From contig JASGCT010000003.1 of assembly GCA_030053915.1 (NCBI GenBank), positions 8,779-72,778 of the forward strand: a stretch of DNA of 64,000 nt. The letters run 5' to 3'. Of the stretch, positions 17,702 to 64,000 are shown piece after piece; the stretch's first letter is position 1; each line of letters begins with the position of its first letter. This DNA is from Alphaproteobacteria bacterium. Its GTDB lineage: Bacteria; Bacteroidota; Bacteroidia; Chitinophagales; Chitinophagaceae. The translations under genes and the position numbers were made by a program. Below the pieces are notes generated by a model that saw only the letters and a list, made by a program, of their open reading frames with translations, made no database searches and was not told the origin of the DNA.

Positions 17702-17717
17702 AGCGAAGTAGTTCTAA

Positions 17718-18032
17718 TTATTCAAGTTCTTTGTCTTGGCATAAGTTCATCTCTTTTAAGATAATATCATCAAATTTAAGTTTTTCTGAATTCGAAGGAT
17801 ATTTTTTTAACATCTCTAAATAGAGATCTGCCGCTTCGGTTTCAACTCTTACAGCTTCTTGTAAAACAGAGACATCGCCGGATGCTGCTTTTTGCGACAA
17901 TGTTTTGGCTTGGCATTGAAGTTCAGCTACTTTTTTAGCATCCATTTCAATGTTATTATTACCATTATTACAACTTGTAATTAAAAATGCAATCATACAG
18001 ATAGCATTAAAAAAAAGGCTTGTTTTTTTCAT
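17718..18032 (-). CDS. small lipoprotein, function unknown
   Basis: 104 aa with a signal peptide and lipobox (…LITSC). It has its own -7 box upstream. Confidence 0.4.
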   Translation of the reverse strand: MKKTSLFFNAICMIAFLITSCNNGNNNIEMDAKKVAELQCQAKTLSQKAASGDVSVLQEAVRVETEAADLYLEMLKKYPSNSEKLKFDDIILKEMNLCQDKELE

Positions 18033-18051
18033 AGATTACGTTTATTTTAAG

Positions 18052-18059
18052 CAAAAGTA
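18052..18059 (-). promoter_or_regulatory. -7 box TACTTTTG for the small lipoprotein gene
   Basis: Matches TAnnTTTG on the minus strand, 19 nt upstream of start 18032. Confidence 0.45.
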
Positions 18060-18171
18060 CTATTATTTTTTGAAATTACCAATTTTGAAATTGGTTTTTT
18101 TCTAAATGTTAAGCAAGATTGGCAAAAAAATATTATAAGTAATATAAATGCATATCACAATACATTTTATT

Positions 18172-20097: not shown

Positions 20098-21498
20098 TTA
20101 ATTAATTTGTATATACCCCCTGCAATGAATAGAATTACAAGAACATTGAAATGGTTCCATCAACCGATTTGAAAATTTAGCATAGTCTAAGGTGAGTTCT
20201 TCACCGGTTTTTACGTCTTTAGTTGTGTAAACATTGAGACCATGGTAAATAGTATTGGCATCGCAACAATGGTTTTGGGGTGCCCATTCGTTGGGGTCTA
20301 AATCCCATAAAATATAATGTGTATCAGATATAGGAAAAGCATATCGTTTAAAATCTTCGAAAGATTCTAATGACCAATTATTTTGTATATATTCTAATGT
20401 TACAATGCGTTGTGGCTTTTCTTCTCCTTTAAAAACCAAGGTGCCTTTGGCAATATCTTTAAGAGCAAATATGCCATAACCAGCATTTTTAGTGGGTTTA
20501 ATTTCGTAGAGTTTTTTGCGCACTTCAAATCGTTGTATGCCATCTTCGATGATTTTTTTTAAAAACCCTGAAGACTCTAAAGGGTCGTATTTTAAAATAT
20601 AATCCGCCGAGCCTTCTAATCCATTGGTATAAAATACAGAACATGCAAAATTTATTTCCAAAAAGAAAATTTCATTATTTTTATTTACTCTAAAATCTAA
20701 ACGGGCATAACCTTTGCCGTTAAAACCCTTAAATATATTGACACTTTGACGCCTAAGAGCATCATTGAGTTCTCCCGGGGCACATGGAATATTGGCTTCG
20801 GGATGGAGCTCGGACGTTTTTTGTTGATATGTTTTATATTTGTAATGTGAAGGGAAAATATACTGAATGGGGTTCAATGCCACATATTCTTGAATAACTG
20901 CATCGTGATAAACTAAGACCGTATATTCGTCCCCATCAATAAATTCTTCTATTAACACATCTTTAAATTCTAATAAAACCGACTTGACTTTTTTAGTAAG
21001 ATCTTTAAAATTATGCACCAGCGAATTTGTGTCAATACCCAAACTATCGCCAGCTTTTGCAGGTTTAATAAATAATGGATATTTTAAATTTTCTAGCCTA
21101 ACTAATTGTTCTATTTTCTCAATATAATGATAATGTGGCGTTTTAACACCTTGACAAAATGCTACATATTTCATAAGCTTCTTCGAGGGATCGTATAAAT
21201 TTATAGGACTACCTGTATAAGGTAAATCTAATAAATCTAAACAATATATAACATCAATGGAAGGTATCTTCCACTCTAAATAACCTTCGCATAAATTAAC
21301 AAAAATATCAAACCCTTGGTATTTTAAGGTTTTTAATTGACTATAGGTTGTTAATTTATTTAAAAGTATGTAAGTAAAATGGGCTTCTGGGATTAAATGA
21401 TTTAAATTCCTTACAGGATCATAATATTTATATGCAACATTTGTAGTTGAGTAATCTGGTTGAAGTACACAAATTTTTAATCCTTTAAACTGTATCAT
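20098..21498 (-). CDS. fusion protein: Ddl-like ATP-grasp ligase domain + C-terminal SET/post-SET methyltransferase domain
   Basis: 466 aa. ATP-grasp strings: YPLFIKPAKAGDSLGI, IEEFIDGDEYTV, YARLDFRV…FFLEINF. SET strings: GYGIFA, NHCCDAN, EELTLDY. Post-SET: CSCNSIHC. Confidence 0.75.
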   Translation of the reverse strand: MIQFKGLKICVLQPDYSTTNVAYKYYDPVRNLNHLIPEAHFTYILLNKLTTYSQLKTLKYQGFDIFVNLCEGYLEWKIPSIDVIYCLDLLDLPYTGSPINLYDPSKKLMKYVAFCQGVKTPHYHYIEKIEQLVRLENLKYPLFIKPAKAGDSLGIDTNSLVHNFKDLTKKVKSVLLEFKDVLIEEFIDGDEYTVLVYHDAVIQEYVALNPIQYIFPSHYKYKTYQQKTSELHPEANIPCAPGELNDALRRQSVNIFKGFNGKGYARLDFRVNKNNEIFFLEINFACSVFYTNGLEGSADYILKYDPLESSGFLKKIIEDGIQRFEVRKKLYEIKPTKNAGYGIFALKDIAKGTLVFKGEEKPQRIVTLEYIQNNWSLESFEDFKRYAFPISDTHYILWDLDPNEWAPQNHCCDANTIYHGLNVYTTKDVKTGEELTLDYAKFSNRLMEPFQCSCNSIHCRGYIQIN

Positions 21499-21502
21499 GA
21501 AT

Positions 21503-22621
21503 TTAAAATTTTATAGTTCGTCTGGCAAAAGCGTCATTAATGATATCAATGACTAAATCATCGAATCCAAGATTACTATATTTTAATATGGCACCTATAG
21601 ATGTAAAATTTTCATCTTCACTTAAACCACATTGCGCATTTACTTCTAAAACGTAGCAAGTTTTGGTTTGGGTATCGTATCTTAAATCAACACGAGCATA
21701 ACCCATTCCCTTTAAGGCACAAAAGGCTTGCCAGCTTAAAGATTTTATCTCTTCAATAAGTTCTGGAGGTGGTAAATGATATTGAAAAAAATCTTCTTGG
21801 TTAGGCATAGAGGATTCATTTTCATAAATTTCCCAAAGCCTTTCATAAGACAAGAATTTTTCTTCTTCTGGTAACGATGCATGAAATATGCGTTCAACAG
21901 GTGTATATATTTTAGCTAATTTTGGGAATGAGTAACTGCCTACTATAAAAGTAGTAAATTCGCACCCTTTAATAAACGATTCAGCTAAAAATCCGCCATG
22001 ATTAAGTTTCCATTCGGACGTATTTGATTTTTTTAGTTTGAGGTATATTTTTTTAAATTCATCAAAACTGTTAACAACATTTTGTACGCCAATGCCTAAA
22101 CTTCCGGCAGATACAGATGGCTTTATAATAATAGGTTTGGTAATACTATCAAAAACTTGTTGCAGATTAGAATCTAACAGCACTTTCCAAAAACTCGTAC
22201 AAACTTGATGTTCATCAAAACATGATTTCATTTTAATTTTAGAAGTTGTTATATTATAAAAATAGGTATCGGCGCCTGTATAAACTAATTGTAATTCATT
22301 TAAATATTGAATGATATTCAAACCTGGTACATCGTTTATGTCATCACCGTCACACATATTAAAAACAACTGGAAAACAAACCCCATCTTCTTTTTCTCTT
22401 TTTATTTTTGAAATTTTCTCTTTATAGTTTTTATTGGTGATAGCTAACCAGACCCAACTGATGTTTAAAGTTTGAAAACAGGTTTCAAATTCTTTATAAC
22501 TTTCTTTAAAGTCATAATAATAGTTGATATCTTGGTTACATGTTAATACATGAGGTACTAAAACCCAAACCTTTAAATGTCCACTTGGAACAAAAGGCAA
22601 AAATCGTTTATCTAATGCCAT
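21503..22621 (-). CDS. Ddl-like ATP-grasp ligase (paralogue of the N-terminal part of the next gene)
   Basis: 372 aa with PIIIKPSVSAGSLGI, ESFIKGCEFTTF and YARVDLRY…YVLEVNAQCG. The gap to the downstream ATP-grasp-SET gene is 4 bp. Confidence 0.7.
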   Translation of the reverse strand: MALDKRFLPFVPSGHLKVWVLVPHVLTCNQDINYYYDFKESYKEFETCFQTLNISWVWLAITNKNYKEKISKIKREKEDGVCFPVVFNMCDGDDINDVPGLNIIQYLNELQLVYTGADTYFYNITTSKIKMKSCFDEHQVCTSFWKVLLDSNLQQVFDSITKPIIIKPSVSAGSLGIGVQNVVNSFDEFKKIYLKLKKSNTSEWKLNHGGFLAESFIKGCEFTTFIVGSYSFPKLAKIYTPVERIFHASLPEEEKFLSYERLWEIYENESSMPNQEDFFQYHLPPPELIEEIKSLSWQAFCALKGMGYARVDLRYDTQTKTCYVLEVNAQCGLSEDENFTSIGAILKYSNLGFDDLVIDIINDAFARRTIKF

Positions 22622-24881: not shown

Positions 24882-26306
24882 ATGTCAGAGTCGTTAACTA
24901 GTAAATGGTTAGATTGCCTTAAAATATTTAAAGATATCGTAGAATTAGATCATTATAAAACTTGGTTTGAACCTATTAAACCAATATCATTAGAACATAA
25001 TGTTTTAACAATTGAAGTCCCTTCACATTTTTTTTATGAATATATTGAAAAAGTTTATGTTAGTTTAATAGCTAAAACTTTAAAAAGAGTATGGGGAATA
25101 AATACTACTTTAGAATATCGCATCCCTGTTGATTCTGGATCGTCAAATCGTAATGGAAAAATGATTCTACCAACTAATAATGCGTTACATAATAACATCA
25201 ATACTCATGGCGGGCTTTGGAAGGAAGGAAGAATTGAAAACCCATATACTGTTCCAGGTTTAACAAGACCACGAATCGATTCGCAACTTAACCCGTCTTA
25301 TACTTTCGACAACTATATTTCAGGAAATTGTAATAAAACATTTATATTTGCAGGTAAAAAAATTGCCGAAACGCCGGGTTTAAATACTCCTTATAATCCC
25401 ATTGTTGTTTATAGTCAAGTAGGGCTTGGAAAAACCCATCTGGTTCATGCTATTGGTAATGACATTAAACGGTTGCATCCAAATTTAACAGTTCTTTACG
25501 TGAGTTGCGAAAAATTTATTAATCAATTTGCAGACCACTGTCAAAAAAGAATGGTAAATGACTTTATCCAATTTTATCAACATGTAGATGTATTAATATT
25601 AGACGATATTCAGTTTTTTAGCGTAGCCGAAAAATCTCAAGATGCATTTTTTGCAATTTTTAATCATTTGCATCAAAGCGGCAAACAATTAATTTTAACT
25701 TCAGACAAAGCACCCAAAGATTTACCCAATGTGGACGAACGACTGCTTAGTAGATTTAGATGGGGTTTAACCGGTGAATTAACCCAGCCCGACTTTGAAA
25801 CCAAGGTTAAAATAATAAACTTAAAACTTAAATTGCAAGGCAATAGTAATGTGGACCCTGATGTTATTAATTATATAGCCGAAAATGTAAACACTAATAT
25901 CAGAGACCTTGAAGGGGTTTTAATTTCTTTAATTGTGCATTCATCTTCTAACGACAAAGAAATGGATATTCGGTTAGCAAAAAAAGTATTAAAAAATATT
26001 GTTAAAGAACAAACTAAAGAGTTGACAATTGATATGATTCATAAAGTTACTTGTGAACATTTTGATATAAATTATCGAAAATTATTTGAAACAACTCGAA
26101 AAAGACAATATGTTCAGGCTCGACAAATTTGTATGTGGTTGGCAAAAAAATATACCGATAAAACCTTAGTAGAAATTGGTAAGCATTTTAACCATCACTA
26201 TTCAACAATTATTCATTCTATAAAAGCAGTAGATACAATGATTGAAACGAATCAACAAAATATGAAAGAAAATCTTGTAGATATAAAAAATAAAATGTAT
26301 TTATAA
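24882..26306 (+). CDS. dnaA: chromosomal replication initiator protein DnaA
   Basis: 474 aa with Walker A GLGKTHL, DDIQF, the sensor region, and the C-terminal DNA-binding helix ARQICMWLAKKYT…IGKHF…HSTIIHS. Confidence 0.95.
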   Translation: MSESLTSKWLDCLKIFKDIVELDHYKTWFEPIKPISLEHNVLTIEVPSHFFYEYIEKVYVSLIAKTLKRVWGINTTLEYRIPVDSGSSNRNGKMILPTNNALHNNINTHGGLWKEGRIENPYTVPGLTRPRIDSQLNPSYTFDNYISGNCNKTFIFAGKKIAETPGLNTPYNPIVVYSQVGLGKTHLVHAIGNDIKRLHPNLTVLYVSCEKFINQFADHCQKRMVNDFIQFYQHVDVLILDDIQFFSVAEKSQDAFFAIFNHLHQSGKQLILTSDKAPKDLPNVDERLLSRFRWGLTGELTQPDFETKVKIINLKLKLQGNSNVDPDVINYIAENVNTNIRDLEGVLISLIVHSSSNDKEMDIRLAKKVLKNIVKEQTKELTIDMIHKVTCEHFDINYRKLFETTRKRQYVQARQICMWLAKKYTDKTLVEIGKHFNHHYSTIIHSIKAVDTMIETNQQNMKENLVDIKNKMYL

Positions 26307-26330
26307 TTTTTATTTATTTAAAATAAAATG

Positions 26331-26338
26331 TATCTTTG
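26331..26338 (+). promoter_or_regulatory. -7 box TATCTTTG for tRNA-Ser
   Basis: Matches TAnnTTTG, 16 nt upstream of the mature tRNA 5' end. Confidence 0.5.
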
Positions 26339-26354
26339 CATATTGTTATAAATT

Positions 26355-26448
26355 GGTGAGGTGGATGAGTGGCTGAAATCAGCGGTTTGCTAAACCGCCG
26401 TACGAGCTAAAACTTGTACCGAGGGTTCGAATCCCTCCCTCACCGCCA
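26355..26448 (+). tRNA. tRNA-Ser (anticodon GCU), CCA encoded
   Basis: Acceptor GGTGAGG pairs with CCTCACC. The anticodon stem is GCGGT/ACCGC with loop TTGCTAA (GCT). It has a long class-II variable arm, a T arm GAGGG-TTCGAAT-CCCTC, discriminator G and CCA. Confidence 0.9.
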
Positions 26449-52417: not shown

Positions 52418-52798
52418 ATGGAATTTAAAAAATTAATCAATATAACTGGTAAACCTGGTTTGTACGAGTTATTAAACTCTAAACAAGATGGTGTCATCGT
52501 AAAAAAATTGGGTACTCAAGATTTGGTTTTTGTGAGTAATCGTAAAACGCCTTTTGCGCTTTTATCTAATATCGAAATGTTTACAACTACGAAAAACATT
52601 TTATTAAAAGAACTCTTGAAAATCATGAAAGATTCTGCAGAGCCCATACCCGAACCAACTGACCTAGCTGGTACTGTAGCTTATTTTAAAAAAATTTATC
52701 CCGAGTTAGATTTTAATAGGATTTATCCTAACGATTTTAAACGTTTAATACAGTGGTTTCAATTAATTAAAGAATTTAACATTGCAATTGAAGAATGA
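52418..52798 (+). CDS. DUF5606-like protein
   Basis: Start at ATG 52418 (MEFKKLINITGKPGLYELL…), which matches my memory of the DUF5606 N-terminus (…ISGKPGLYKL…). The track start 52382 overlaps nuoF. Confidence 0.5.
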   Translation: MEFKKLINITGKPGLYELLNSKQDGVIVKKLGTQDLVFVSNRKTPFALLSNIEMFTTTKNILLKELLKIMKDSAEPIPEPTDLAGTVAYFKKIYPELDFNRIYPNDFKRLIQWFQLIKEFNIAIEE

Positions 52799-55292
52799 GT
52801 ATAGGCAAAATATATTTTTTTTTCTGCCTTTTTTAATATGTTTAATAAGCATTTCAGCTAAAGCTCAATTTACAAAAGTTAAAGGTGTCATCAGAGATTA
52901 CCAACTTGAAGAACCCATTTCGTATGCCTCAATTTATTGGAAGAAGACAGGCCGTGGTTTAGAAACAGATAGTTTGGGCTTTTTTTCGATAAATATTGAT
53001 AAGTATTCCAATAACGATACGCTAATTATTTCGGCAGTTGGATATGTTATAAAGCAAATTCCAGCCGATAAAATTTTGAACCCAGATTTAGGCGATATTT
53101 TTTTAAAAGTTGCGCCGCCCGTTGTAGAAGTAGTTGTTAAAAAAAAGTACGATAGAGGCGTGTGGTTTTGGAAAAAAATCATGGCACAAAAATATAAAAA
53201 CGACCCTAAAAAAATCAAAAACTATTATTGTCAGTTGTATAATAAAATTGAGTTCGATTTAATTAATTTTAATCAAAACCAGCTCAAGAAAAATGTCTTT
53301 ACAAAACCATTTGGCTTTGTCTTTAATTATATAGACTCTGTTTCGGAACGCAAACCTTTTATTCCTATATATCTTATCGAAACGATGTCGGATTTTTATT
53401 ATAAATCCAACCCATCAAAATCCTATGAAAATATTTTTCATGTTCGTGAAAAAGGCTTCGAAAATAAATCTATTATTAAAGAGTTTGGTGGTACGTATCA
53501 ACAAATAAACCCCTATAGCGAAACAATTGATATTCTTCGTTTTCAATTTGTTAATATATTGCATCCCAGTGCCTCCGATTTTTATAAGTTTAAAATTAGT
53601 GATACCATGTATTGGAATGGAAGGGCGCTCATTCGTTTTACGTTTACCTCAAAAATTATTGGCTCGCCAACCTTTGACGGCGAAGCCTGGATAGATGCGA
53701 AGTCTTTAGGTATCCAAAAAATAACGTTGCGACCTAACGTAAACTCAAATATCAATTTTATTGAAGGACTTTCTATTTTACAAGAGTATAATTTATATCA
53801 AGATAGTATTTGGTTTTTACAAAAAGAAAAATTTGTAGCTGATATTGCACCAGTAGGCAATGGAAATTTAGCTTTTAAATCGCGTAAAACAACATTTTAT
53901 CAAACCCCAAAATTTAACGATACCTCTATTACCAATGTATTAGCAGACATAAAAGGTGATGTGAGTGTAGTGGTTAGTAAAGACGTGAATATGAATTTGT
54001 TAGAAGATTCTGTAAACGACATGAAACGCCCTATACCCTTAGAACATAGCGAATTATTGGCTTTAAAAGTGATAGATACTTTGTTTAAAAATAAAACTTT
54101 TAATCTATACAAAAATGCTTTAGAAGTAGTAGCAACTGGTGTGTATGATATTGGTAATTTTACACTAGGACCCTGGACCAATTGGGTTAGTGGTAATCAA
54201 TACGAAGGCTTTAAACTACGGTTTGATTTAGCAACCAGTTACGATTTTAGTTCTAAATGGAATATTGGTGGATATTTAGCTTATGGGTTTTTAGATGAAA
54301 AATTTAAAGGCGGTGTTTTCGGTCGTTATCAAATTTCACGTCAACCTTGGCAATATATCCTTTTAAATTTTAAAAGTGATGTTACGTCGCGTTCTAATAA
54401 TTTAGGTTTTGGTGTAAGCAGTCTATTTGGATCATTATTAAGAGATAATAACATACCATTAAAATTACAGTATCTTGAACAAACAACTTTTACTTATTTC
54501 AAAGAAAATCATAAAGGATTTTCGTTTAAAATCGACATTGAAAATTATAATTACGATCCACTGATTAATTTGCCATCCATAACATTATATTCAAGTTTCC
54601 CCAACGACCCTTTTCGATCATTTCAAACGAATATAACCTTACGTTATGCTCACAATGAACGCTTTTTACAACGAAATTTTTCAAGATTTTCAATAAGAAG
54701 TAGAACACCTATATTTTCTGTAAGTTTAGTTAAGTCTTGGGATAATTTTTTATTAAGTACCAATAAATTTGAAAAAATTCAAGCCAGTATAGAACATCTG
54801 GTAAGCGTACCCAGATTAGGGTCATTAAATTATAAAGTTGTGGGTACTTATATTTTTGGTAAAGTAAGTTATCCTTTTCTCGACTTTGTAACAGGTAATG
54901 AAGTGTATTACTACAATCCCAATGCTTTCAACCTTCTGAATCAGTTTGAAATAGCTTCTGATAAAAATTTATATTTCTTGTTTGAACATAATATTTTAAA
55001 TAGTTTTTTTACATATTTTAAAACAACACGAAAATGGAAATTAAGGCAGTTTTGGACTTTAAAAGCTTTAGTGGGAAATATCTCTACCCAAAGTGCTGTA
55101 TTAAATACCAATAGTCAACCTTTTTTTAATAGTTTAAATGGGAATGTCTATGCAGAAATTGGAACAGGTTTTGATAATATTTTTAAATATTTTAGAATAG
55201 ACTTTATTTGGCGCTTATTAACACCTCAAACAGCAATTCCATTAAATGATCGAACTTTTGCAGTTTTTGCCAGTTTTAGATTTTCTTTTTAA
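52782..55292 (+). CDS. carboxypeptidase-regulatory-like domain + DUF5686 protein (start uncertain: TTG, or ATG 52795 after a 1-nt frame correction)
   Basis: 836 aa. It has a signal-like N-terminus (…FFFLPFLICLISISAKAQ) and a CarboxypepD_reg-like segment (KVKGVIRD…EPISYASIY…TDSLGFFSI). The long C-terminal region has beta-rich character. Confidence 0.6.
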   Translation: MQLKNEYRQNIFFFLPFLICLISISAKAQFTKVKGVIRDYQLEEPISYASIYWKKTGRGLETDSLGFFSINIDKYSNNDTLIISAVGYVIKQIPADKILNPDLGDIFLKVAPPVVEVVVKKKYDRGVWFWKKIMAQKYKNDPKKIKNYYCQLYNKIEFDLINFNQNQLKKNVFTKPFGFVFNYIDSVSERKPFIPIYLIETMSDFYYKSNPSKSYENIFHVREKGFENKSIIKEFGGTYQQINPYSETIDILRFQFVNILHPSASDFYKFKISDTMYWNGRALIRFTFTSKIIGSPTFDGEAWIDAKSLGIQKITLRPNVNSNINFIEGLSILQEYNLYQDSIWFLQKEKFVADIAPVGNGNLAFKSRKTTFYQTPKFNDTSITNVLADIKGDVSVVVSKDVNMNLLEDSVNDMKRPIPLEHSELLALKVIDTLFKNKTFNLYKNALEVVATGVYDIGNFTLGPWTNWVSGNQYEGFKLRFDLATSYDFSSKWNIGGYLAYGFLDEKFKGGVFGRYQISRQPWQYILLNFKSDVTSRSNNLGFGVSSLFGSLLRDNNIPLKLQYLEQTTFTYFKENHKGFSFKIDIENYNYDPLINLPSITLYSSFPNDPFRSFQTNITLRYAHNERFLQRNFSRFSIRSRTPIFSVSLVKSWDNFLLSTNKFEKIQASIEHLVSVPRLGSLNYKVVGTYIFGKVSYPFLDFVTGNEVYYYNPNAFNLLNQFEIASDKNLYFLFEHNILNSFFTYFKTTRKWKLRQFWTLKALVGNISTQSAVLNTNSQPFFNSLNGNVYAEIGTGFDNIFKYFRIDFIWRLLTPQTAIPLNDRTFAVFASFRFSF

Positions 55293-55356
55293 ATTTTAAG
55301 ATTTTAAAAGATGTTATTTTTATGTTAATTATGTTATAAAATTCACTAAAATAGCG

Positions 55357-55364
55357 TACCTTTG
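55357..55364 (+). promoter_or_regulatory. -7 box TACCTTTG for the giant ORF
   Basis: Matches TAnnTTTG, 4 nt upstream of ATG 55369. Confidence 0.5.
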
Positions 55365-55368
55365 CACT

Positions 55369-58300
55369 ATGTATTATTTAAAAAGTAGAACTATAAAATT
55401 AATTCTATCTACTTGCTGTTTTTTATTTTTAAATAATGTAAATTCTCAAGTAAAAATAACAGTAGGTGCTTCTGGAGCAAATTATACCTCAATCAATGCT
55501 GCTTTAGTTGCATTAAGAACCACAACAATCACTCAACCGCATCAAATTTTATTGCAAAAAAATTATAATTATAAACAAGAAACTATTCCTTTAATTATAA
55601 CCAATCAACCTGGCGCATCAGCTATAAATACCATAACCATTAAACCAGATTCTGGCGTTGTAACCAGTATTAAAGGAGCAGTTGACGGTGGGGCTGTTAT
55701 TAAATTTAATGGTTGTAAATATTTTATTTTAGATGGCAGTAATAAAGTGAATGGCACCACACGCGACTTAACAGTTGTGGACACATCTCAAAATGTTATA
55801 GACATCCATGATGTACCTTCTTATAATTCTAATGCGGTTATCTGGGTATCTACCCCATCTCCTTTTAGTCCAACTTCAAACATCACGATTAAAAATTGTA
55901 ATGTTGAAGGGTATCGAAATGGTTCTGTTTTAACCATTGTAACTGGTATATTAATATCAGGTCCTAATTTCTTTACGAATACCAACGACACTTCTGAATC
56001 TAATAAATATGGCACCATTAATAATATATCAATTATTAATAATCAAATTAGTAATATTCGTTTTTGCGGTATCGGGGCATTGGGTTTGGGGTTAATAAAA
56101 CATTTAGATTCAGGGTTAATTATTGATAGAAATATTGTAGGTTCAGCTACAGTGCCCATGTCTGGTCCACGTTTTATTGGCATTGCAGTGCTAAGATATA
56201 AAAATATTACGATGAGTAATAATGAGATTGTTGGCATGAATCATCCGAGTACTGAAGAAGAAACGCATTTAAATTTTGTGGATGAAAACACTTATGGTAT
56301 TTGTAACATAAATAATTTAAATGCCACGGTTTTTAATAATATGATACATGGTTTAAGTACCGATATTAATAATAGCCAATTATTTGGTGTATATAATAGC
56401 TCCAATGATTATTTAACAAGAGCTGGTAATAAAAGTACCAACCATAGATTTTATAATAATACAATTTATGATTTTGCATTTACTGAAAATAGTAATAGTG
56501 TACCATTTGTTACGGCATTTTATCATGAAGGTGGGTGGCGCGATAAATATAATTTTAATTCGGTATATCTGTCTGGAATTTTTGGCAAAAGCGCCTCCAG
56601 ACCTGTTACGGCTTTTTTTTATTCTAATAGATTTAGCGGTTCGGCTCAAACTATGCTAACAAATTACGATTCTACAGAAATTAGAAATAATATTTTTTAT
56701 ATAAACGATAATACATCGAATGCGAGTAAATATTTGTTTTATACCAATAGAAGTTTACATGCAGCTTTTTATACGAATATGTCTAATAATTTGTATTATA
56801 ATACAGCGAATACTAAAAATTTTATTGCGTACATAAATGGGACGTCTTACCAAACTTTTGGCAATTGGCAAACCTTTGTTGGAACTGCAGATGCCAACTC
56901 TAAATATGGCGACCCCTTATATATTTCAACCACAAATTTAAATATTCAAGCGGGTTCAGCGGCTATCTTATCGGCAATTCCACGTAATAATATTAATTTT
57001 GATATATTATATGCCACCCGCGATGCTATAAAACCTACCATTGGGGCTTATGAATATTCATATAATCCGGCTATAATTAAAAATGCCTATCCTATAATTT
57101 TAAGAAACTTAGATACGCTTAATATAGTGGGTTCTAAGTTAAGTCAAATTCAATTGATTGGATTTCCTGATTCGCAACAGGTATCGACTCTTTTAACTAA
57201 AACAGCCTTAAACGCAACGGATACTTTATATAAAATATTAATACCTAGCGTATTAAGGGGCGGTTTGTATATTGTTAAAGGCGTGGATAATCAAAATTTT
57301 CAAACAACAACGTATCGATTGATTCGGGTTTATACATTTCCAATAGATAGCGTTTATGTTAAAAGTTGGGGTTTTAATGATTATGGACAATATACACGCC
57401 CTGAGACCCAAAGAAGGGTGGTTCATTTAAGTACGGGTTCGGGTCATAGAATTTTATTAAGATTGAATGCCACTGTGCAAGCACAAGGCTTAAATAATAA
57501 TAACCAATTACCGCTAAACCCTGTTGACAGTGTGGTTGAGATGGCGGCAGGTTTAAATCATACTATTTTGTTAAGAACGAATGGTGTGGTACATGTATAT
57601 GGTAATCAAACTAATAAACCAGCCGATTCGGTTGGCTATGTTAATATTTCGGCAGGGTTGCTACATAGTTTATATTTAAAAAATGATTATTCAATGATAA
57701 CACGAGGTAGTAATAGTAATAGTCAGTTAAATGTTCCTGTAACGTTTTTGTCAGCAAGAAATTTAAGTGGTGGCGGTTTTCATTCTTTAGGTATTGGAAG
57801 TACACAAACTATTAGCGGCTGGGGTAGCAATGCCAGTGGGCAGGCAACTCTTGCTGTGGGTTCAAATAATAATATCGAGCTGATTGCTGGGGGGCATATT
57901 CATAGTTTAGCTTCCAAAACAAATAGAGTTCCTTTAGCTTTTGGGAGTAATAGTCGTGGTCAAGCCACAGTACCAACGCTTTCTAATGTGAATTACATTA
58001 AAGCTGGGGCTTATTTTAGTAACGCTTTACAAAATAATGAAATTTTTACGGCATGGGGGTTCAATGGTATAGATACTTTAAATGCATATCCTAGAAATGG
58101 GGCATTAAACTATTCTAATGTTGCTGGTTTGATTGATTCTTTTAATAAACAGCCCGATGTTGTGGCAATAGGAAATAGTACACCCTATATTTATAATTCG
58201 GTATTACAACGATTGTTTATTCAAACTTCAGTTAAGAATGGCACTATTTCACCCAAAATATATTTTAAATGGGGTGATACGGTTGTAATAACCTATAGTC

Positions 58301-61300
58301 CTTTACCAGGGCGGGTATTAGATAGCATTTTTATTGATAGTGTGTATGTTGGCAAAGATTCTTTAATACGATATACATTTCCAAATGCTACTTATAGTAG
58401 GTATATTCGGGTTGTGTTTTCTGACACGCCGCGTCCCGTTGTGCTTCTTAATCCGTCGCGCTTAGGATTAAGACTTTGCCCTAACGAAACCGATACTTCT
58501 AAGTATTTAAAAGTAAGGGCTTTAGGAAATACACTCAATAATCTTAATATTAAACTCTTATCTTATCAATGGTACCGAAATAGATTTAAAGACACTCTGA
58601 ATGGCGTGCCCTTGGCAGGTGCTAATGGCGTTTTAAATTCCTATGATACAACTCTAAAATTTTATCCACCCTCTAATGTTTATCCTGATACTAGTTATTA
58701 TTATGTTCGTTTTATAAATTCAAGTTTTGGCGATACATTTTCCAGCGTTTCGGGGGCTGTGATAACTATGAAAGCAGCAATTTCTTGGAAAATAAATGAT
58801 AGTATTTTTAATTATTGTGTACCAAGTTCCGATTCGGCGTTTATTAAATTACGATATACTAAATTTTATAGTTCCGATACTTTTAATTTTAAATTATATC
58901 AAACAAATACCAATACAAATTATAATGGCATGTTACAGTCGGTCTTGCCATTCCCGCCGCCCGTGCAAACATATAAAACGGCACAATTTTTGGTGAATAC
59001 CCCTCAAACTCGGTATTATTATATTTTCAGTACCAATATGTTTGGATGTATTGATACTACGCCAATTTATACTTTACAATGGACAACATTAATTAATATA
59101 ACTACCATAAATTTAAAAGATAGTTTGTATTGCCAAGGTGCATTAACGAAGGCTTTGGTAATTTCAACTGGTTTAGATTCAAATAAAGTACAATATCGTT
59201 GGTATGCTAATAATATGCCCAGTTTTAATGGAGCTATACCTTTAAATGTTTTAAATGATAGCAGTTTCAAACCATTTTCGATACCCAACGGTATTATTGG
59301 TGATAGTACTTGGTATTACGTTATTGTAACTGATAAATTGGGTGTATGTAAATCGGATACCTCGGTTTTAAGTGGTTTGATAGCTATAACAAGACCCGAA
59401 ATTGTTAATCCCAATACGTTGCTTCGTCAATATTGTCAATATATGGCTCAAGATACTTTGAAAGTAACTGTGAACAATTTATATTGGAAAAATAAAGTGG
59501 ATTATACTTGGTATAAACGCATTGTGTCGATACCTCAAAGTATTCAACTAGTTGGCATGGATAGTTTTTATGTACCAGATGGTTTAAATTACGATTCTGC
59601 TTATTATTTTGCTGTTGTAAGTTCAAAAGCTGGTACGGGTTGCAGTTTACGAGACACAAGTTTCTTGTCTGGGCTGTATATAACCTACCCGTTTCCAACT
59701 ATTTCAAATATCTTAAGAGACACTAGTTTCTGTTTTGTCCCAGGTGTAACAAGTTTAAATCTTACCATTAGCAGCCCATGGCAAACTTCTTTGTTGGTGC
59801 AATGGTATCAAACAAATCAAGGACTTCAGTATATTGGTAATGCTTTAGTGGGCGATACCAATTTATATTTAAATGTTAATAATAAAATTGATACATCATT
59901 TTATTATGCCATTGTTCGCAATAATTACGGGTGTGTGGATACGTCTAATATTGTAAGAGTTATAAATTTTCCGGTGCCCGATTCTAGTTCAATTGATTTT
60001 ATTTTAAATGGGGGTATGCCTATAATATGTGTGCCGGCTGGCGATACAACGCGTGTTGCCATAGCTATTAAAAATCCTCAAAACATACCCTTGACTTGGG
60101 ATATTTATAGAAGTTTTACCAATACTTATATGGGTTCGGTGATACCGCATTTTACTGTGCGTCCTTTAGATTCATTTGTTACCGATACTTTAAGAATATT
60201 TAATCAGAGTACACATTATTTTTATACTGTTTATAGTAATCAATATGGATGTAAAGATAGTTCGTCTATTTCAAAAATTCAATGGTATTTTGGTTTGGAA
60301 CTCAATACGGTGAATTTAACGGGTAATAGCTATTGTCGGGGTGCTATAGCCAACCCGTTAACGGTTGCTTTACAAATTCCTTTAGATACCTCTAGAATTA
60401 TTTATAATTGGTATGGTACGTATTCTCCAACATTATACAATGGTTTTTTATTAGCAACAAATAAAGATAGTTTTTGGGTGCCTGCAACCAACCCTGTGAA
60501 TCCAATTAGAGATACCATGTATTATTATACTATAGTTCAAGATAAATTATTTGAATGTGCTAGCGATACGTCTGCTATTTCTGGCGTTATCATTTTATCT
60601 TATCCTAATATAGATAGTATAACTCAAGTTACAACCCCAGCCGAACGTTGCCAAAATGCTAATTATGATAGTATCTCCGTAAAGCTTAACGGCAATTGGG
60701 TGGGGCAGGTACGTTATGTTTGGTTTAAAAATAAGAGTCAAATTTTTACAGGTGCCGATTCCATTAGTAACGATTCTGTATTGTATCCTATGGCAACACT
60801 TGTAGATACAAGTTATTATTTTTTAGTGGTAAAAGCAGATGCGATGTCTGGTTGTTATGGTGCTGCAGATACAAGTGACATTATTGGCCCCTTTATTACA
60901 TACCCGTATCCTAATATTACTGGTTTGTTAGATACTTTTACCGCAGTGTGTAGAAACACAATACCTGCAATAATATCGGCTCAGTATCAATACTTATGGG
61001 CGACAGATAGTTTAAGATTTCGTTGGTTGGTAAAACCATTTTCAGGTTCGGTTTTTAATATTATTTTAGATACTATTAAAGTGAATTCTTTTGATACATG
61101 GAAGGTTTTAGCCGATAGTTTTGAATTGCAGTATATTGTTTCTAATAAAATTGGCTGCGCCGATACGTCTAATATTGGACGATACGAATTATTAAGAACG
61201 GCATTTCAAGATAGCGTAAAAATAATCATCAATGATAACATTTCAAATTTATGTTTGAATTTATTGGATAGTCAAATGATATTTTTAAAAACTGTCAATA

Positions 61301-64000
61301 CAAATCTTACGCCCATGCCACCTGATTACCCGATGCCAATTACTTGGAAGATATTTATATCAGATACCAATGTATTTAATGGCAACCAATTAAATTTTAA
61401 TCAACGATTATTACCCCAAGATACCAATTATTTTGATTCAGATAAATTTGCCATTTCAAAATCTAATATTACGTCCACTAAATACTTTTATTCAGTACTA
61501 ACAAATAGAAATGGTTGTATGGATACATCGATGCCATTTAAAATTGATTGGACACGTTTATTAAAAATTACCAATATAAATTTAAATGGTGCATTGTATT
61601 GTAATGGTGATACAGCCTTGCCTTTGGCAGTTTCAGTAAAAGGATATGATACAACGAGGATTTTATACAAATGGTATCGTAATAACCAAGTTAGTATTTT
61701 AAATAGCCAATTAGTTAAGTCTAGCAATGATTCTTTTTATATACCTTTAACAAATTATAAAGCGGGTGATAGTTCTTATTATTTTGTTATAGCTGAAGAT
61801 AAATTAAACTATTGTATTGCGGACACCTCTAATATTTCTGGGTTAATTTATTTAAGAAATGCTACGTATATCAATACTTTTGATACAACGGATTATAATA
61901 AGTGTATCAATAGCGGGTCTTTTGATTCTTTAAAAATTGGGATTTATAATGGTTGGGCAGATTCCTTTAATTATACTTGGTATCAAGCGGCATTAACTAA
62001 TAATTATGTACCCGCTTTCTATTCAAACAAAAAATCTATTCAGCCCAACCAAACAATTGCCGATTCAGTTTATTATTTTTGTATTTTGAAGCCTTTAACA
62101 AGTGCTGTTTGCCCAAGAATAAATGATACGACTAAATATAGTGGGTTGTACGTTGTCTATCCTTTACCAATAATAAATAATATTTTATTGGATACTGTTT
62201 TATGTTTTACAAATTCACCATTATCTTATAGTTTGGACATCAATCCTATTTGGATGCCAAGTACTCAAGTTTGGACTTGGTTTATAAATGATTCAAATCG
62301 ATTTAATGGTGCTACAAGTCTTGGTAATTATGCTTTTAAAAATATTAATATATTTCTAAAAGACACGAATATTATAGATACAAATTATTATTTTGCACAA
62401 TATCAAAATACGTATTGTCAGGTTCGTTCGAATATTTTTAATATAGTGGTTTATCCTAAACCCAGCCATCAAATTATAAATTTCAAGGCGTCTGTTATAG
62501 ATAATTGCGTTCCAATTCAAGATAGTTTTGTGAAAGGACTCAGTTTTTCAATTTCTTATTTAAGCCCTTTACCACAATTATCTACGCGATTTTATGTAAG
62601 TTCCTCAGCCATGTTTTCGGGAACTTTATTAACAACAAGTTCTAAATCTGGTTCGGGTTTTGATTCTGTTTTTAATGTTGCAGAAGCCCTTAAAGTGAGT
62701 AACCCGCAATCTTATTATTTTTATGCTTTGCTTGAAAATGTGCTTGGTTGTGTTGATACCACACCTCTTAAAAACATTAATTTTATTGATAAAATAATAG
62801 CGACTACAATTCAATTAAATAGCCATATCTATTGTATCGGTGAGGCTCCCGTAGCATTGCAAGTAAGTAATGTTTTGGGTTATGATACTACTAAAATAAA
62901 TTATAGTTGGTACGGTAATATAATGTATGATTATAATTCGGCTAACTTGTTTTCTGTTTTAAATGATAGTTTTTATTTCCCTGCTACTGTGCCTTCGATG
63001 TTGGTTAAAGATTCAATGTTTTATTATGCTGTATTAACAGATAAAAACAATTATTGTCGTTCAGATACATCAGCAATTAGCGGTGCAATTGTGATTAATT
63101 ATCCAAAAATAGTGGTACAACCCAATCGTAATAATTATACATTATGTTTTGGAAATCCAATACCTAAAATTTCAGTAGGTATCGATAATAATTGGAAGTT
63201 AAATGTTGATTATTTTTGGTACAAGTTAAAAGATACATTAAATTTAAATTCTGCAGTTTTAGTTTCTAATGATAGTGCTTTTGTACCCATTTTAAATGCA
63301 GGCGATACGGCATATTTTTATTGTATTACCAAAGGTAAATCAAGTTCTAGTTGTCCTAATTTTGTGGATACCACAAATTTTTCTGGTGTGTATATAATTT
63401 TTAGAACACCAGTAATTACGAATATATTTAAAGACACAAGCTATTGTAGTAATATTGATTCTGCAAGATATCAGCTAAAATTGGCTCAAGTAAATATAGC
63501 AGATTCTGTTAAAATTAGTTGGTATGTGAGTAACAATAATAGTTATAATGGCAACCAAATATTAGGACTATCAGATTCTATTTTTAATACCAATAGAACG
63601 ATTGGTACGCGATATTATTATGCAGTTGCATCTAATAAATATCTTTGTTTTGATAGCTCAAATATATTTAATGTTATCATAAACCCGCATCCTTATCAAC
63701 AAGGAATTTCTGATATCATAAATAATAATTTAGGTTTATTATGCTTGCCTATTAATTTTGCTACTAAAGTGAACGTAATCGTTTCCAATCCTTTAAATGC
63801 TAGTATTAGTTGGTCTTTATATCAAAGTACGATACCGTCCAAAAATGGCACTATTTTAAGTGTGTTTCCAACCTCAAGGGTTGATTCGTTTGTTACAGAT
63901 TCTATAAAAATTAATATGCCATCTGTGAAATATTTTTATACTATTTATTCAAATAATTTTGGTTGTTTTGATACGTCTGATGTTTTTAGAATTGAATGGT
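55369..64000 (+). CDS. giant secreted multidomain surface (adhesin-like) protein, 5' part only; 2,877 codons in the window, 3' end beyond the window
   Basis: Frame +1 has no stop from TAA 55297-55299 to base 64000. ATG 55369 is the first in-frame start codon of any type. A -7 box lies at 55357-55364. The N-terminus MYYLKSRTIKLILSTCCFLFLNNVNSQ is signal-peptide-like. The ORF is absent from the track only because it is not closed by a stop. Confidence 0.9.
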   Translation, partial: MYYLKSRTIKLILSTCCFLFLNNVNSQVKITVGASGANYTSINAALVALRTTTITQPHQILLQKNYNYKQETIPLIITNQPGASAINTITIKPDSGVVTSIKGAVDGGAVIKFNGCKYFILDGSNKVNGTTRDLTVVDTSQNVIDIHDVPSYNSNAVIWVSTPSPFSPTSNITIKNCNVEGYRNGSVLTIVTGILISGPNFFTNTNDTSESNKYGTINNISIINNQISNIRFCGIGALGLGLIKHLDSGLIIDRNIVGSATVPMSGPRFIGIAVLRYKNITMSNNEIVGMNHPSTEEETHLNFVDENTYGICNINNLNATVFNNMIHGLSTDINNSQLFGVYNSSNDYLTRAGNKSTNHRFYNNTIYDFAFTENSNSVPFVTAFYHEGGWRDKYNFNSVYLSGIFGKSASRPVTAFFYSNRFSGSAQTMLTNYDSTEIRNNIFYINDNTSNASKYLFYTNRSLHAAFYTNMSNNLYYNTANTKNFIAYINGTSYQTFGNWQTFVGTADANSKYGDPLYISTTNLNIQAGSAAILSAIPRNNINFDILYATRDAIKPTIGAYEYSYNPAIIKNAYPIILRNLDTLNIVGSKLSQIQLIGFPDSQQVSTLLTKTALNATDTLYKILIPSVLRGGLYIVKGVDNQNFQTTTYRLIRVYTFPIDSVYVKSWGFNDYGQYTRPETQRRVVHLSTGSGHRILLRLNATVQAQGLNNNNQLPLNPVDSVVEMAAGLNHTILLRTNGVVHVYGNQTNKPADSVGYVNISAGLLHSLYLKNDYSMITRGSNSNSQLNVPVTFLSARNLSGGGFHSLGIGSTQTISGWGSNASGQATLAVGSNNNIELIAGGHIHSLASKTNRVPLAFGSNSRGQATVPTLSNVNYIKAGAYFSNALQNNEIFTAWGFNGIDTLNAYPRNGALNYSNVAGLIDSFNKQPDVVAIGNSTPYIYNSVLQRLFIQTSVKNGTISPKIYFKWGDTVVITYSPLPGRVLDSIFIDSVYVGKDSLIRYTFPNATYSRYIRVVFSDTPRPVVLLNPSRLGLRLCPNETDTSKYLKVRALGNTLNNLNIKLLSYQWYRNRFKDTLNGVPLAGANGVLNSYDTTLKFYPPSNVYPDTSYYYVRFINSSFGDTFSSVSGAVITMKAAISWKINDSIFNYCVPSSDSAFIKLRYTKFYSSDTFNFKLYQTNTNTNYNGMLQSVLPFPPPVQTYKTAQFLVNTPQTRYYYIFSTNMFGCIDTTPIYTLQWTTLINITTINLKDSLYCQGALTKALVISTGLDSNKVQYRWYANNMPSFNGAIPLNVLNDSSFKPFSIPNGIIGDSTWYYVIVTDKLGVCKSDTSVLSGLIAITRPEIVNPNTLLRQYCQYMAQDTLKVTVNNLYWKNKVDYTWYKRIVSIPQSIQLVGMDSFYVPDGLNYDSAYYFAVVSSKAGTGCSLRDTSFLSGLYITYPFPTISNILRDTSFCFVPGVTSLNLTISSPWQTSLLVQWYQTNQGLQYIGNALVGDTNLYLNVNNKIDTSFYYAIVRNNYGCVDTSNIVRVINFPVPDSSSIDFILNGGMPIICVPAGDTTRVAIAIKNPQNIPLTWDIYRSFTNTYMGSVIPHFTVRPLDSFVTDTLRIFNQSTHYFYTVYSNQYGCKDSSSISKIQWYFGLELNTVNLTGNSYCRGAIANPLTVALQIPLDTSRIIYNWYGTYSPTLYNGFLLATNKDSFWVPATNPVNPIRDTMYYYTIVQDKLFECASDTSAISGVIILSYPNIDSITQVTTPAERCQNANYDSISVKLNGNWVGQVRYVWFKNKSQIFTGADSISNDSVLYPMATLVDTSYYFLVVKADAMSGCYGAADTSDIIGPFITYPYPNITGLLDTFTAVCRNTIPAIISAQYQYLWATDSLRFRWLVKPFSGSVFNIILDTIKVNSFDTWKVLADSFELQYIVSNKIGCADTSNIGRYELLRTAFQDSVKIIINDNISNLCLNLLDSQMIFLKTVNTNLTPMPPDYPMPITWKIFISDTNVFNGNQLNFNQRLLPQDTNYFDSDKFAISKSNITSTKYFYSVLTNRNGCMDTSMPFKIDWTRLLKITNINLNGALYCNGDTALPLAVSVKGYDTTRILYKWYRNNQVSILNSQLVKSSNDSFYIPLTNYKAGDSSYYFVIAEDKLNYCIADTSNISGLIYLRNATYINTFDTTDYNKCINSGSFDSLKIGIYNGWADSFNYTWYQAALTNNYVPAFYSNKKSIQPNQTIADSVYYFCILKPLTSAVCPRINDTTKYSGLYVVYPLPIINNILLDTVLCFTNSPLSYSLDINPIWMPSTQVWTWFINDSNRFNGATSLGNYAFKNINIFLKDTNIIDTNYYFAQYQNTYCQVRSNIFNIVVYPKPSHQIINFKASVIDNCVPIQDSFVKGLSFSISYLSPLPQLSTRFYVSSSAMFSGTLLTTSSKSGSGFDSVFNVAEALKVSNPQSYYFYALLENVLGCVDTTPLKNINFIDKIIATTIQLNSHIYCIGEAPVALQVSNVLGYDTTKINYSWYGNIMYDYNSANLFSVLNDSFYFPATVPSMLVKDSMFYYAVLTDKNNYCRSDTSAISGAIVINYPKIVVQPNRNNYTLCFGNPIPKISVGIDNNWKLNVDYFWYKLKDTLNLNSAVLVSNDSAFVPILNAGDTAYFYCITKGKSSSSCPNFVDTTNFSGVYIIFRTPVITNIFKDTSYCSNIDSARYQLKLAQVNIADSVKISWYVSNNNSYNGNQILGLSDSIFNTNRTIGTRYYYAVASNKYLCFDSSNIFNVIINPHPYQQGISDIINNNLGLLCLPINFATKVNVIVSNPLNASISWSLYQSTIPSKNGTILSVFPTSRVDSFVTDSIKINMPSVKYFYTIYSNNFGCFDTSDVFRIEW
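55450..56900 (+). other. parallel beta-helix (PbH1-like) region of the giant protein (approximate bounds)
   Basis: Recurrent Asn-ladder turns are present: NITIKNCNVEG, ISIINNQISN, ITMSNNEIVG, VFNNMIHG, FYNNTIYD, EIRNNIFY, MSNNLYYN. Confidence 0.55.
57358..58068 (+). other. RCC1/BLIP-II-like beta-propeller repeats within the giant protein
   Basis: About 6 short blades: SWGFNDYGQ, AAGLNHTILLRTNGVVHVYGN, SAGLLHSLYL, GGGFHSLGIGSTQTISGWGSNASGQ, AGGHIHSLAS…AFGSNSRGQ, TAWGFNG. Confidence 0.6.
58430..63999 (+). repeat. array of 18 diverged Ig-like modules (about 100 aa each) organised as four-module super-repeats
   Basis: Each module follows the pattern C…(Y/F)xW(Y/F)…(D/T)(S/T)xYY(Y/F)…GC.DTS. Super-repeat boundaries fall at 59083, 60286, 61552 and 62785, and the last one ends at 63999 (401, 422, 411 and 405 codons). 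Confidence 0.8.

Follow-up and report, generated by a model that had tools for sequence, protein, structure and literature searches.

The end of the 64-kb stretch of DNA analyzed here (hereafter the window) raises the question of whether a long reading frame that runs off its edge is a real gene and, if so, what kind of protein it encodes and where that protein would act. According to the original prediction, the frame belongs to a giant secreted surface protein that is missing from the list of ORFs. The list indeed lacks it, as ORFs running off the source are not included, and ORF lists that drop such frames can hide the largest gene of a window. Being unlisted is nevertheless only an artefact of list making: the gene is already annotated at NCBI and fits a known class, and the current understanding is unchanged by it.

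An intact giant gene under purifying selection

Translating frame +1 from 55297 to 64000, we found a TAA at 55297–55299, followed by 2,900 sense codons and no stop from 55300 up to the end of the window at 64000. The earliest candidate start is the ATG at 55369: none of the 23 codons between the TAA and this position is an ATG, GTG, or TTG. This leaves 2,877 codons within the window, as had been predicted. Over the same 8.7 kb, the remaining five frames contain 176 to 360 stops each, and the second-longest open stretch anywhere in the window is 841 codons. With the local base composition, the probability of 2,900 stop-free codons is ~1e-100.

Of the gene, the first 63% lies in the window (codons 1–2,877 of 4,569; 55369..64000, + strand), with a translation 100% identical to the NCBI protein MDI9337023.1 (P0001). 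Extending the contig had been proposed as a check, and we found the remainder of the gene beyond the window in an independent Logan assembly (L001:14215-19293), which is identical to the window DNA across the overlap and continues the frame to a stop, giving a full product of 4,569 aa. In all, the complete gene was recovered, starting from a homology search, from two assemblies other than that of the window. The original prediction had named an in-frame stop or frameshift as evidence against the gene; instead, the same intact frame was present in three assemblies originating from different samples. Comparison of two strains gave a dN/dS of 0.136 for the gene, with the differences between the strains concentrated in the head of the protein. 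These data show an intact giant gene under purifying selection.

The gene is highly repetitive and was recovered from metagenome assemblies, and one relative (locus L005) is broken into three ORFs, features that would also fit a false long frame created by repeat collapse or expansion, or a decaying pseudogene. We regard this explanation as having practically no chance of being correct. Besides the identical frame in different samples, the low dN/dS, and the minute probability of such a frame arising by chance, the repeats themselves are old: the super-repeats share only 44–50% DNA identity, and within the 13.7-kb gene no exact repeat exceeds 17 nt. In one of the three assemblies, moreover, the neighboring genes are broken into two ORFs, with the giant gene whole. 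Misassembly was rejected because repeats this divergent would not collapse.

Domain architecture of the giant protein

Reading from the N terminus, a signal peptide is followed by a parallel beta-helix and an RCC1/BLIP-II-like propeller. A small conserved domain separates these from 33 Ig-like modules, and a pre-CTD domain leads to the type B C-terminal sorting domain (CTD) at the end of the protein. The original prediction had read a signal-peptide-like N terminus, about 500 aa of Asn-ladder parallel beta-helix, an RCC1-like propeller, and at least 18 Ig-like modules from the part within the window, and it had suggested HMM searches and structure prediction for each domain. These analyses agreed with its reading throughout: the profiles CHU_C, TIGR04131, and RCC1_2 exceeded their cut-offs, and AF2 produced models of the beta-helix and the module.

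The Sec signal peptide covers aa 1–26 (55369..55446, + strand) and was judged on sequence features. A K/R-rich n-region precedes a hydrophobic core at residues 11–21, and the predicted cleavage site, between NVNS and Q, agrees with the Bacteroidetes Q-rule for signal-peptide cleavage (PMC5837995). The family members P0044 (KSNS before QININ) and P0048 (HTSA before QTLTT) have the same layout.

The head unit that follows (aa 28–590, conserved core ~30–568; 55450..57138, + strand) is a right-handed parallel beta-helix of ~540 aa. Its AF2 model consists of coils of short strands and has a pTM of 0.84, with moderate confidence (pLDDT 73.8). Searching the PDB with Foldseek, we found matches to GH136 lacto-N-biosidases (E 1e-8), PL6 chondroitinase B, alginate lyases, the AlgG epimerase, and the adhesin PfbA, with TM-scores of 0.3–0.48 and identities of 8–12%; among viral structures (BFVD), the matches were beta-helix tailspikes and phage capsule depolymerases. 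All top matches from the two collections were right-handed beta-helices. Consistently, the head profile (A1) matched 9rx2, "Parallel beta-helix repeat protein", with an E value of 8e-6, and Asn occupies 11 of the 26 invariant columns in the head alignment. The Pfam scan of the full protein gave no direct Beta_helix match.

The enzymes among the best structural neighbors (GH136, PL6 chondroitinase B and alginate lyases, AlgG, and the capsule depolymerases) suggest that the head could be a glycoside hydrolase or polysaccharide lyase, mounted on a stalk and directed against polymers or capsules of other cells, a role that would be compatible with adhesion. We consider this possible but rather unlikely. 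The TM-scores and identities are low, none of the CAZy-type families in Pfam or NCBIfam was matched, and the invariant head columns are mainly the structural Asn ladder and Gly with no evident catalytic pair. Moreover, the adhesin PfbA matches the head too, and the head unit, which is present one to three times in other giant proteins, occurs in some of them as two or three tandem copies, an arrangement uncommon for a catalytic domain. Binding and catalysis are indistinguishable here because the moderate-confidence head model resembles both enzymes and adhesins.

A short linker domain (aa 591–663; 57139..57357, + strand), 33–36% identical in P0044 and P0048, which are collinear relatives, and without a family match in Pfam and the other family scans, connects the head unit to the beta-propeller (aa 664–905; 57358..58083, + strand). 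The propeller scored 35.4 bits with Pfam RCC1_2 (cut-off 22) and 59.9 bits with WD40_RLD, the latter under its cut-off of 150, and by eye we counted six to seven units of ~40 aa in the sequence. The closest solved relative is the beta-lactamase inhibitor protein II (BLIP-II) of Streptomyces (PDB 1jtd_B, E 2.9e-29), likewise RCC1-like with blades of ~40 aa. BLIP-II is a free-standing protein of 273 aa, whereas the propeller here is one domain within a surface protein of 4,569 aa, and nothing suggests that it would inhibit beta-lactamases. The small domain after the propeller (aa 906–1021; 58084..58431, + strand) is the best-conserved part of the family, with 48–51% identity to P0044 and P0048, and has no Pfam match and no sequence relative in the PDB.

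The rest of the frame in the window (58432..64000, + strand) is made up of Ig-like modules 1–18, the last ending four residues early at the window edge. An iterated HMM run on the full protein identified 33 modules with domain E values from 7e-27 to 1.3e-12 and a spacing of ~101 aa. The modules are ordered as A-B-C-D super-repeats, a unit of four, and each has ~100 aa with the motifs Y-x-W-Y and Y-Y-F and a conserved pair of Cys. The AF2 model, built from a single-module alignment (A3), is an all-beta sandwich (pLDDT 89.5); its Foldseek matches were cadherin, Fn3, and antibody V domains (TM 0.45–0.57), and the module profile matched IL-1 receptor Ig domains in the PDB (E 2e-3). Scored directly, Pfam Ig_7 (PF19081) reached 19.7 bits over eight stretches, below its gathering cut-off of 27.3. 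On the other hand, the module HMM covers residues 3329–3421 of P0039 and 751–843 of P0049, the very residues of their strong Ig_7 matches (169 and 178 bits), and by these sequence profiles the modules are assigned as divergent homologues of bona fide Ig_7 domains. Ig_7 proteins such as these two ("Ig-like domain CHU_C associated") likewise end in CHU_C or Por_Secre_tail CTDs; the modules here differ from them in their divergence and in the arrangement as a super-repeat of four types. The module family was found in 4,247 representative proteins, up to 64 copies in some, and those scanned end in T9SS CTDs. The O-glycosylation sequon D[ST][AILVMT] is present in 69 copies compared with 14.8 +/- 3.5 in shuffled sequences and occurs in 30 of the 33 modules.

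Sorting domain, host, and a model for export

A T9SS sorting domain was expected to lie beyond the window, and we found it there as a type B CTD at aa 4480–4557 (L001:19021-19290). It scored 51.4 bits with CHU_C (cut-off 27) and 36.7 bits with TIGR04131, exceeding the curated cut-off of the latter (35) by just 1.7 bits, and it weakly matches the C terminus of the grappling-hook protein GhpA, itself a T9SS substrate. A porP/sprF-like gene directly downstream is common but not universal among type B CTD substrates; in Flavobacterium johnsoniae, 9 of 12 have one. No such gene adjoins the giant gene, and PorP_SprF and TIGR03519 gave no match among the window ORFs of at least 240 aa or the neighboring ORFs at the loci L001, L004, and L005, for which the unassigned ORFs were searched to E <= 1. 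[quoted passage not shown] The missing downstream gene implies that the shuttle is encoded elsewhere and is perhaps common to several substrates (PMC12618676).

The genes of the window support a Bacteroidota host: the GldD equivalog scored 212 bits (cut-off 120), a GldE-like gene lies beside it, and the best named matches of RadA are in Chitinophagaceae/Sediminibacterium (66–70%). The predicted gldD–gldE pair was thus verified for gldD, but the gldE-like gene scores under its curated cut-off. An alphaproteobacterial origin was rejected on the basis of GldD, the T9SS CTD, and the affinities of RadA. T9SS core genes (sprA, porV, gldKLMN) were absent from the window and the flanks read. The gene upstream of the giant gene is a DUF5686/CarbopepD_reg_2 gene, and those downstream (AP_endonuc_2, DUF3098, and FtsX) are antisense to it. 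A scan of genome contigs with the DUF5686 neighbor gave one relative (31% identity) in a Bacteroidetes MAG (L002), where it is not followed by a giant gene, so that the linkage between the two genes is not conserved. A literature search on the sample and protein accessions gave no hits.

Overall, we think it probable that the giant protein is a T9SS substrate with a type B CTD, forming a surface-anchored stalk that bears a head, in an uncultured, low-GC, Chitinophagales-like member of Bacteroidota. We infer the steps of export, anchoring, and stalk formation from SprB, PG1035, and GhpA. The precursor would cross the inner membrane via Sec and be cleaved before Gln27. The CTD would then be recognized at the SprA/Sov translocon and passed to a shuttle in the outer membrane, PorP/SprF-like and with its gene at another site in the genome, making the protein an "orphan" type B substrate, and the shuttle would retain the uncleaved C terminus on the cell surface; for type B CTD proteins, this anchoring model rests on earlier studies (PMC9143113, PMC12618676, bioRxiv 10.1101/2024.01.29.577165). 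The 33 Ig-like modules would form a stalk, probably O-glycosylated and, by our own estimate, roughly 130 nm long, that holds the head with its beta-helix and propeller at a distance from the cell. This head would be the working end, most likely binding and possibly cleaving a polysaccharide or another surface ligand, and it is also where the strains differ.

Relatives and comparison with known giant T9SS proteins

SprB, GhpA, and other giant T9SS type B substrates act as the working ends in gliding motility and contact-dependent predation, and we know of few that have been characterized. The protein described here adds a clearly laid-out example, with a head of beta-helix and BLIP-II-like propeller where the strains differ, a stalk of four-module super-repeats, and no linked shuttle gene. 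It may be useful for testing how type B substrates of the "orphan" kind reach their shuttle and what their heads bind.

At least three collinear relatives (P0044, P0048, and a neighbor of 5,558 aa) are found on equally low-GC contigs, and the paralogs of the lineage carry 13 to 33 or more modules. A neighboring gene encoding 811/812 aa is conserved at L004 and L005; it is absent from the window and not homologous to the DUF5686 protein encoded there. One reading, which we hold to be unlikely, is that the protein belongs to a small, lineage-restricted family of T9SS filaments and is its largest known member. The family would be a strain-specific appendage for capturing or recognizing prey, host, or particle glycans, with a distal head exchanged between strains by recombination. 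Its members would share the beta-helix head, the BLIP-II-like propeller, a conserved domain of 115 aa, a stalk of Ig_7 modules (13 to 33 or more), and the type B CTD, and its role would be comparable to that of the Aureispira grappling hook, to which it is unrelated in sequence. At none of the family loci read was a linked PorP/SprF shuttle found.

The original prediction compared the protein with SprB and RemA. SprB, the 6,497-aa gliding adhesin of F. johnsoniae, is a giant Sec/T9SS surface protein with an Ig-like repetitive body and an uncleaved type B CTD (TIGR04131/CHU_C), with a PorP/SprF-like protein holding it on the surface (PMC9143113; bioRxiv 10.1101/2024.01.29.577165). The resemblance holds for the type B CTD and the giant Ig-like build but not for the SprB repeat (PF13573) or a sprF neighbor, and RemA is a poor match: its type A CTD (TIGR04183/Por_Secre_tail) and SUEL-type lectin were not found in the full protein. 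A functional analogue of SprB, that is, a mobile adhesin driven by GldLM on the gliding track and acting mainly in gliding motility, would also fit the presence of gldD and the gldE-like gene in the same window. In addition, a type B CTD alone can send cargo along SprB-like helical trajectories in F. johnsoniae (PMC12618676), and there is no porE-like gene alongside, as for sprB, a trait suggested to mark mobile substrates (PMC9143113). Such a role is nonetheless improbable in our assessment. Scanned with Pfam at E <= 10, the full protein gave WD40_RLD, CHU_C, RCC1_2, and Ig_7 only and no SprB repeat, the locus lacks an operon of the sprC-sprD-sprB-sprF type and a downstream sprF, and several paralogs of widely differing module number look more like a diverse set of adhesins than one dedicated to motility. 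An elaborate head of beta-helix and propeller, as present here, is to our knowledge not a feature of SprB and also counts against the analogy.

GhpA, the grappling hook of Aureispira (PDB 9flp, 5,898 aa), offers a further comparison. Its N terminus is the distal end, PorP and PorE homologues are encoded downstream, and the protein forms heptamers (bioRxiv 10.1101/2024.01.29.577165). We judge it very unlikely that the giant protein forms a similar multimeric, rigid appendage, in which copies bundled via their Ig-like stems capture prey or particles. The similarity of the CTDs reaches only E 0.06, and outside this domain there is no detectable sequence similarity; neither the module profile nor the full protein matched 9flp in PDB sequence searches, and the 50 Foldseek matches listed for the model of the module do not include GhpA. 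The head and stem of GhpA are thus without detectable homology to the giant protein. Moreover, ghpA is trailed by ghpB and ghpC, whereas no PorP/PorE homologues lie downstream of the giant gene. What favors the analogy is the shared plan: each has a signal peptide, a distal N-terminal module, dozens of Cys-bearing Ig-like repeats, and a T9SS CTD, the 52 repeats of the GhpA stem, with its disulfides and O-glycans, corresponding to 33 modules with predicted O-glycosylation in the giant protein.

The open frame and the complete gene

Translation of frame 1 across window positions 55297–64000 confirmed the predicted stop-free run: the TAA at 55297–55299 is followed by 2,900 sense codons up to the window end. 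The remaining five frames carry 176–360 stops across the same 8.7 kb. Assuming a stop probability of ~7.7% per random codon, an open run of 2,900 codons has a probability near 1e-100, and the second-longest open stretch in the whole window is 841 codons. As the 23 codons between this TAA and ATG 55369 contain no ATG, GTG or TTG, ATG 55369 is the earliest possible start, in agreement with the start originally proposed. The frame had been missing from the ORF listing for the reason then given, that ORFs running off the source are not listed.

A homology search retrieved the full 4,569-aa protein (P0001; NCBI MDI9337023.1) with 100% identity along the entire query. The giant gene is thus known already, under the generic name [quoted passage not shown] The stop codon and total length beyond the window were recovered from other assemblies: an independent Logan assembly (L001) contains the complete gene at 5584–19293 and is identical to the window at every overlapping base, and an ENA assembly of a different sample (L003) contains a 4,570-aa allele (P0033). 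Given a complete length of 4,569 aa, the window contains the first 63% of the gene.

The gene is under purifying selection, P0001 and P0033 being 99.1% identical with a dN/dS of 0.136. An in-frame stop or frameshift in other sequencing had been named as evidence that would count against the gene; the frame is intact to the gene end in both L001 and L003. In L003, the 13.7-kb frame is unbroken despite two neighbors, single ORFs in the window, being called there as two ORFs each: RadA (113 + 352 aa; L003:1034–2411) and the DUF5686 protein (545 + 150 aa; L003:7814–9924). These split calls suggest indel errors, which long reads may have introduced, and the survival of the giant frame among them indirectly supports its reality. 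Collapse of repeats in the assembly is very unlikely, since the internal repeats are old and diverged: DNA identity between the super-repeats described below is only 44–50%, and no exact word longer than 17 nt is repeated anywhere in the gene.

Domain organization, relatives and strain variation

P0001 starts with the expected signal peptide (aa 1–26): its beginning is rich in K/R, residues 11–21 form a hydrophobic core and NVNS/Q follows, the Gln at +1 being consistent with the Bacteroidetes Q-rule (PMC5837995). The head (aa ~28–590) had been read as ~500 aa of Asn-ladder parallel beta-helix, and alignment, modeling and structure searches agree. When the head was aligned with 14 homologous segments of other giant proteins, 11 of the 26 invariant columns were Asn; the AF2 model (pLDDT 73.8, pTM 0.84) places short strands in coils; and every top Foldseek match was a right-handed beta-helix, including GH136 lacto-N-biosidases (E 1e-8, TM 0.46–0.48), PL6 chondroitinase B, AlgG, the adhesin PfbA, and phage tailspikes and depolymerases. 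The alignment profile also matches PDB 9rx2, "Parallel beta-helix repeat protein" (E 8e-6). The ~500-aa unit occurs in one to three tandem copies within other giant proteins, several of which have C-terminal T9SS sorting domains (CTDs). A short, conserved linker without a family match (aa 591–663) leads to the predicted RCC1-like propeller (aa 664–905), which scores above the cut-off for Pfam RCC1_2 and has the propeller BLIP-II as its nearest solved structure (E 2.9e-29). It is followed by a small domain (aa 906–1021) with no relatives detected in Pfam or PDB.

Residues 1022–4395 form 33 Ig-like modules of ~100 aa, 18 of them within the window, where at least that number had been anticipated. 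Two Cys residues are conserved in each module, as are the motifs Y-x-W-Y and Y-Y-F, and the array consists of two leading modules, seven A-B-C-D super-repeats and a final A-B-C, with identities of 26–37% within and 17–27% between module types. The structure model of the module is all-beta (pLDDT 89.5) and matches cadherin, Fn3 and antibody V domains (TM 0.45–0.57, E about 1e-2), and the module profile matches IL-1-receptor Ig domains (E 2e-3). On P0001 itself, Pfam Ig_7 scores 19.7, below its threshold of 27.3. In two Ig_7 proteins (P0039 and P0049), the module HMM covers exactly the residues strongly matched by Ig_7, which argues that the modules are divergent Ig_7 domains. Scanned in full at E ≤ 1e-3, a set of 1.84 billion representative proteins contained 4,247 with the module, some of them with up to 64 copies. 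A pre-CTD segment (aa 4396–4479) precedes the CTD, the two together spanning aa 4396–4569. As predicted for the part beyond the window, the C-terminus is a T9SS sorting domain, of type B by its scores for CHU_C (51.4 bits, cut-off 27) and TIGR04131 (36.7 bits, cut-off 35); it also weakly matches the GhpA C-terminus (E 0.06).

Two representative proteins, P0044 (2,920 aa, 17 modules) and P0048 (2,412 aa, 13 modules), are collinear with P0001 and have signal peptides of the same layout. Their identity to P0001 is 33–35% in the head, 35–36% in the propeller and 48–51% in aa 906–1021, the best-conserved part of the family. Identity in the CTD region, computed from P0044 as P0048 ends before the C-terminus, is 45%. 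The tail of the P0048 gene seems to have been split off into two 3' ORFs, one of 285 aa and the next, which has CHU_C, of 216 aa. P0044 (L004:10001–18763) lies on a 3.57-Mb contig of a related low-GC genome, in tandem with a 5,558-aa paralog (L004:1–9984; RCC1 and CHU_C matches) that ends 16 bp before it; the loci of P0001, P0044, P0048 and the paralog all have a G+C of about 30–31%. No PorP/SprF gene was found adjoining the relatives' loci (L004 and L005). A PD40 + OmpA (PorE-like) gene lies on the opposite strand 6 kb downstream of the tandem pair. Near both smaller family members are 811/812-aa proteins (L004:21379–23817 and L005:6175–8610; 64% mutual identity) with no Pfam match, absent from the window and unrelated to its DUF5686 protein.

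The L001 and L003 sequences differ at 218 nucleotides over 23.8 kb. Of these, 111 fall in L001:5001–7500 (window ~54786–57285), a 2.5-kb tract that takes in the last part of the upstream DUF5686 gene along with the beta-helix head. The dS is 0.18 in the head versus 0.006 in the modules, and the dN/dS in the head is 0.11. With half of the differences in one tract, these values disfavor positive selection on point mutations; the tract was probably imported by recombination, replacing the distal head. A second hot spot, with 37 differences in 1 kb (L001:22001–23000), lies further downstream, past the giant gene, in a 503-aa ORF without a Pfam or NCBIfam match.

Host organism and gene neighborhood

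The window (G+C 31%) encodes, as noted originally, a GldD equivalog (212 bits, cut-off 120) adjoining a GldE-like gene. The window and neighboring L001 genes encode DUF5686, DUF1573, DUF3098 and DUF5606/DUF6852 domains, which are mainly Bacteroidota families, and RadA has its best named relatives in Sediminibacterium, Chitinophagaceae, Ferruginibacter and Hydrotalea (66–70% identity). On these grounds the host is placed in the Bacteroidota as a divergent member, probably near Chitinophagales. The NCBI label "Alphaproteobacteria bacterium" conflicts with GldD, the type B substrate, the domain families and the RadA affinities, and the taxonomic label, or the binning, of the source MAG looks wrong.

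A gap of 76 bp separates the giant gene from the upstream gene on the same strand, which encodes an 836-aa DUF5686/CarbopepD_reg_2 protein (window 52782–55292, +). The sole relative of this protein among the scanned GTDB representatives, 31% identical, is in a Bacteroidetes MAG, and no giant gene follows it there. The genes downstream are antisense. The motif TACCTTTG (window 55357–55364, +) ends 4 nt before ATG 55369 and fits TAnnTTTG, the consensus for the −7 promoter element of Bacteroidota. A functional promoter here would yield an mRNA with little or no leader; motifs of this type are common in the window (159 copies versus 126 expected), so the position may be due to chance.

Elsewhere in the window, a 466-aa ORF (20098–21498, −) has an unusual fusion of ATP-grasp (D-Ala-D-Ala-ligase-like) and C-terminal SET domains and adjoins a second ATP-grasp gene (21503–22621). 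At 24882–26445 (+), the gene after dnaA (474 aa) encodes a tRNA (26355–26445), and the window may thus include the chromosomal origin region. Past the window, on the longer contig (L003:28821–33713), genes with AAA_21, DUF2326, MC6 and SMEK_N/CTD10/CTD11 domains look like a conflict or defense island.

Putative export and comparison with known systems

The gene and its domains, among them the type B CTD, were observed directly, as was purifying selection; from these, export and surface display can be proposed by analogy. Type B substrates are exported by Sec and then the SprA/Sov translocon, and a PorP/SprF-like shuttle collects them and stays attached to them on the cell surface, their CTD remaining uncleaved (PMC9143113; PMC12618676); P0001 would take the same route and be retained in the same way. 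No PorP/SprF match was found among window ORFs of at least 240 aa and unassigned L001 neighbors. For "orphans," type B substrates lacking an adjacent shuttle gene, the shuttle is unlinked and possibly shared between substrates (PMC12618676), and that of P0001 would similarly be encoded elsewhere, maybe common to several substrates.

By analogy with GhpA, which measures 240 nm and has 52 repeats plus hook and base (bioRxiv 10.1101/2024.01.29.577165), the C-terminus of P0001 would be cell-proximal and the N-terminal module distal. The head would bind or cleave a putative ligand. At an estimated ~4 nm per Ig-like domain, a stalk of 33 modules would be roughly 130 nm long. The motif D[ST][AILVMT], reportedly the Bacteroidota O-glycosylation sequon, occurs 69 times versus 14.8 ± 3.5 in shuffled sequences and is carried by 30 of the 33 modules, so the stalk is probably glycosylated, like the GhpA stem.

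The original description was right in nearly every detail; of the likeness it drew to SprB/RemA-class adhesins, a resemblance to SprB stands in the type B CTD and the giant Ig-like build. By sequence definition P0001 counts as a type B T9SS substrate and, by analogy, would work as other type B substrates do, SprB and GhpA among them. It falls outside the SprB family because it has neither SprB repeats nor an spr operon, and it is unlike RemA, which combines a type A CTD with a lectin domain. Its detectable similarity to GhpA is confined to the CTD.
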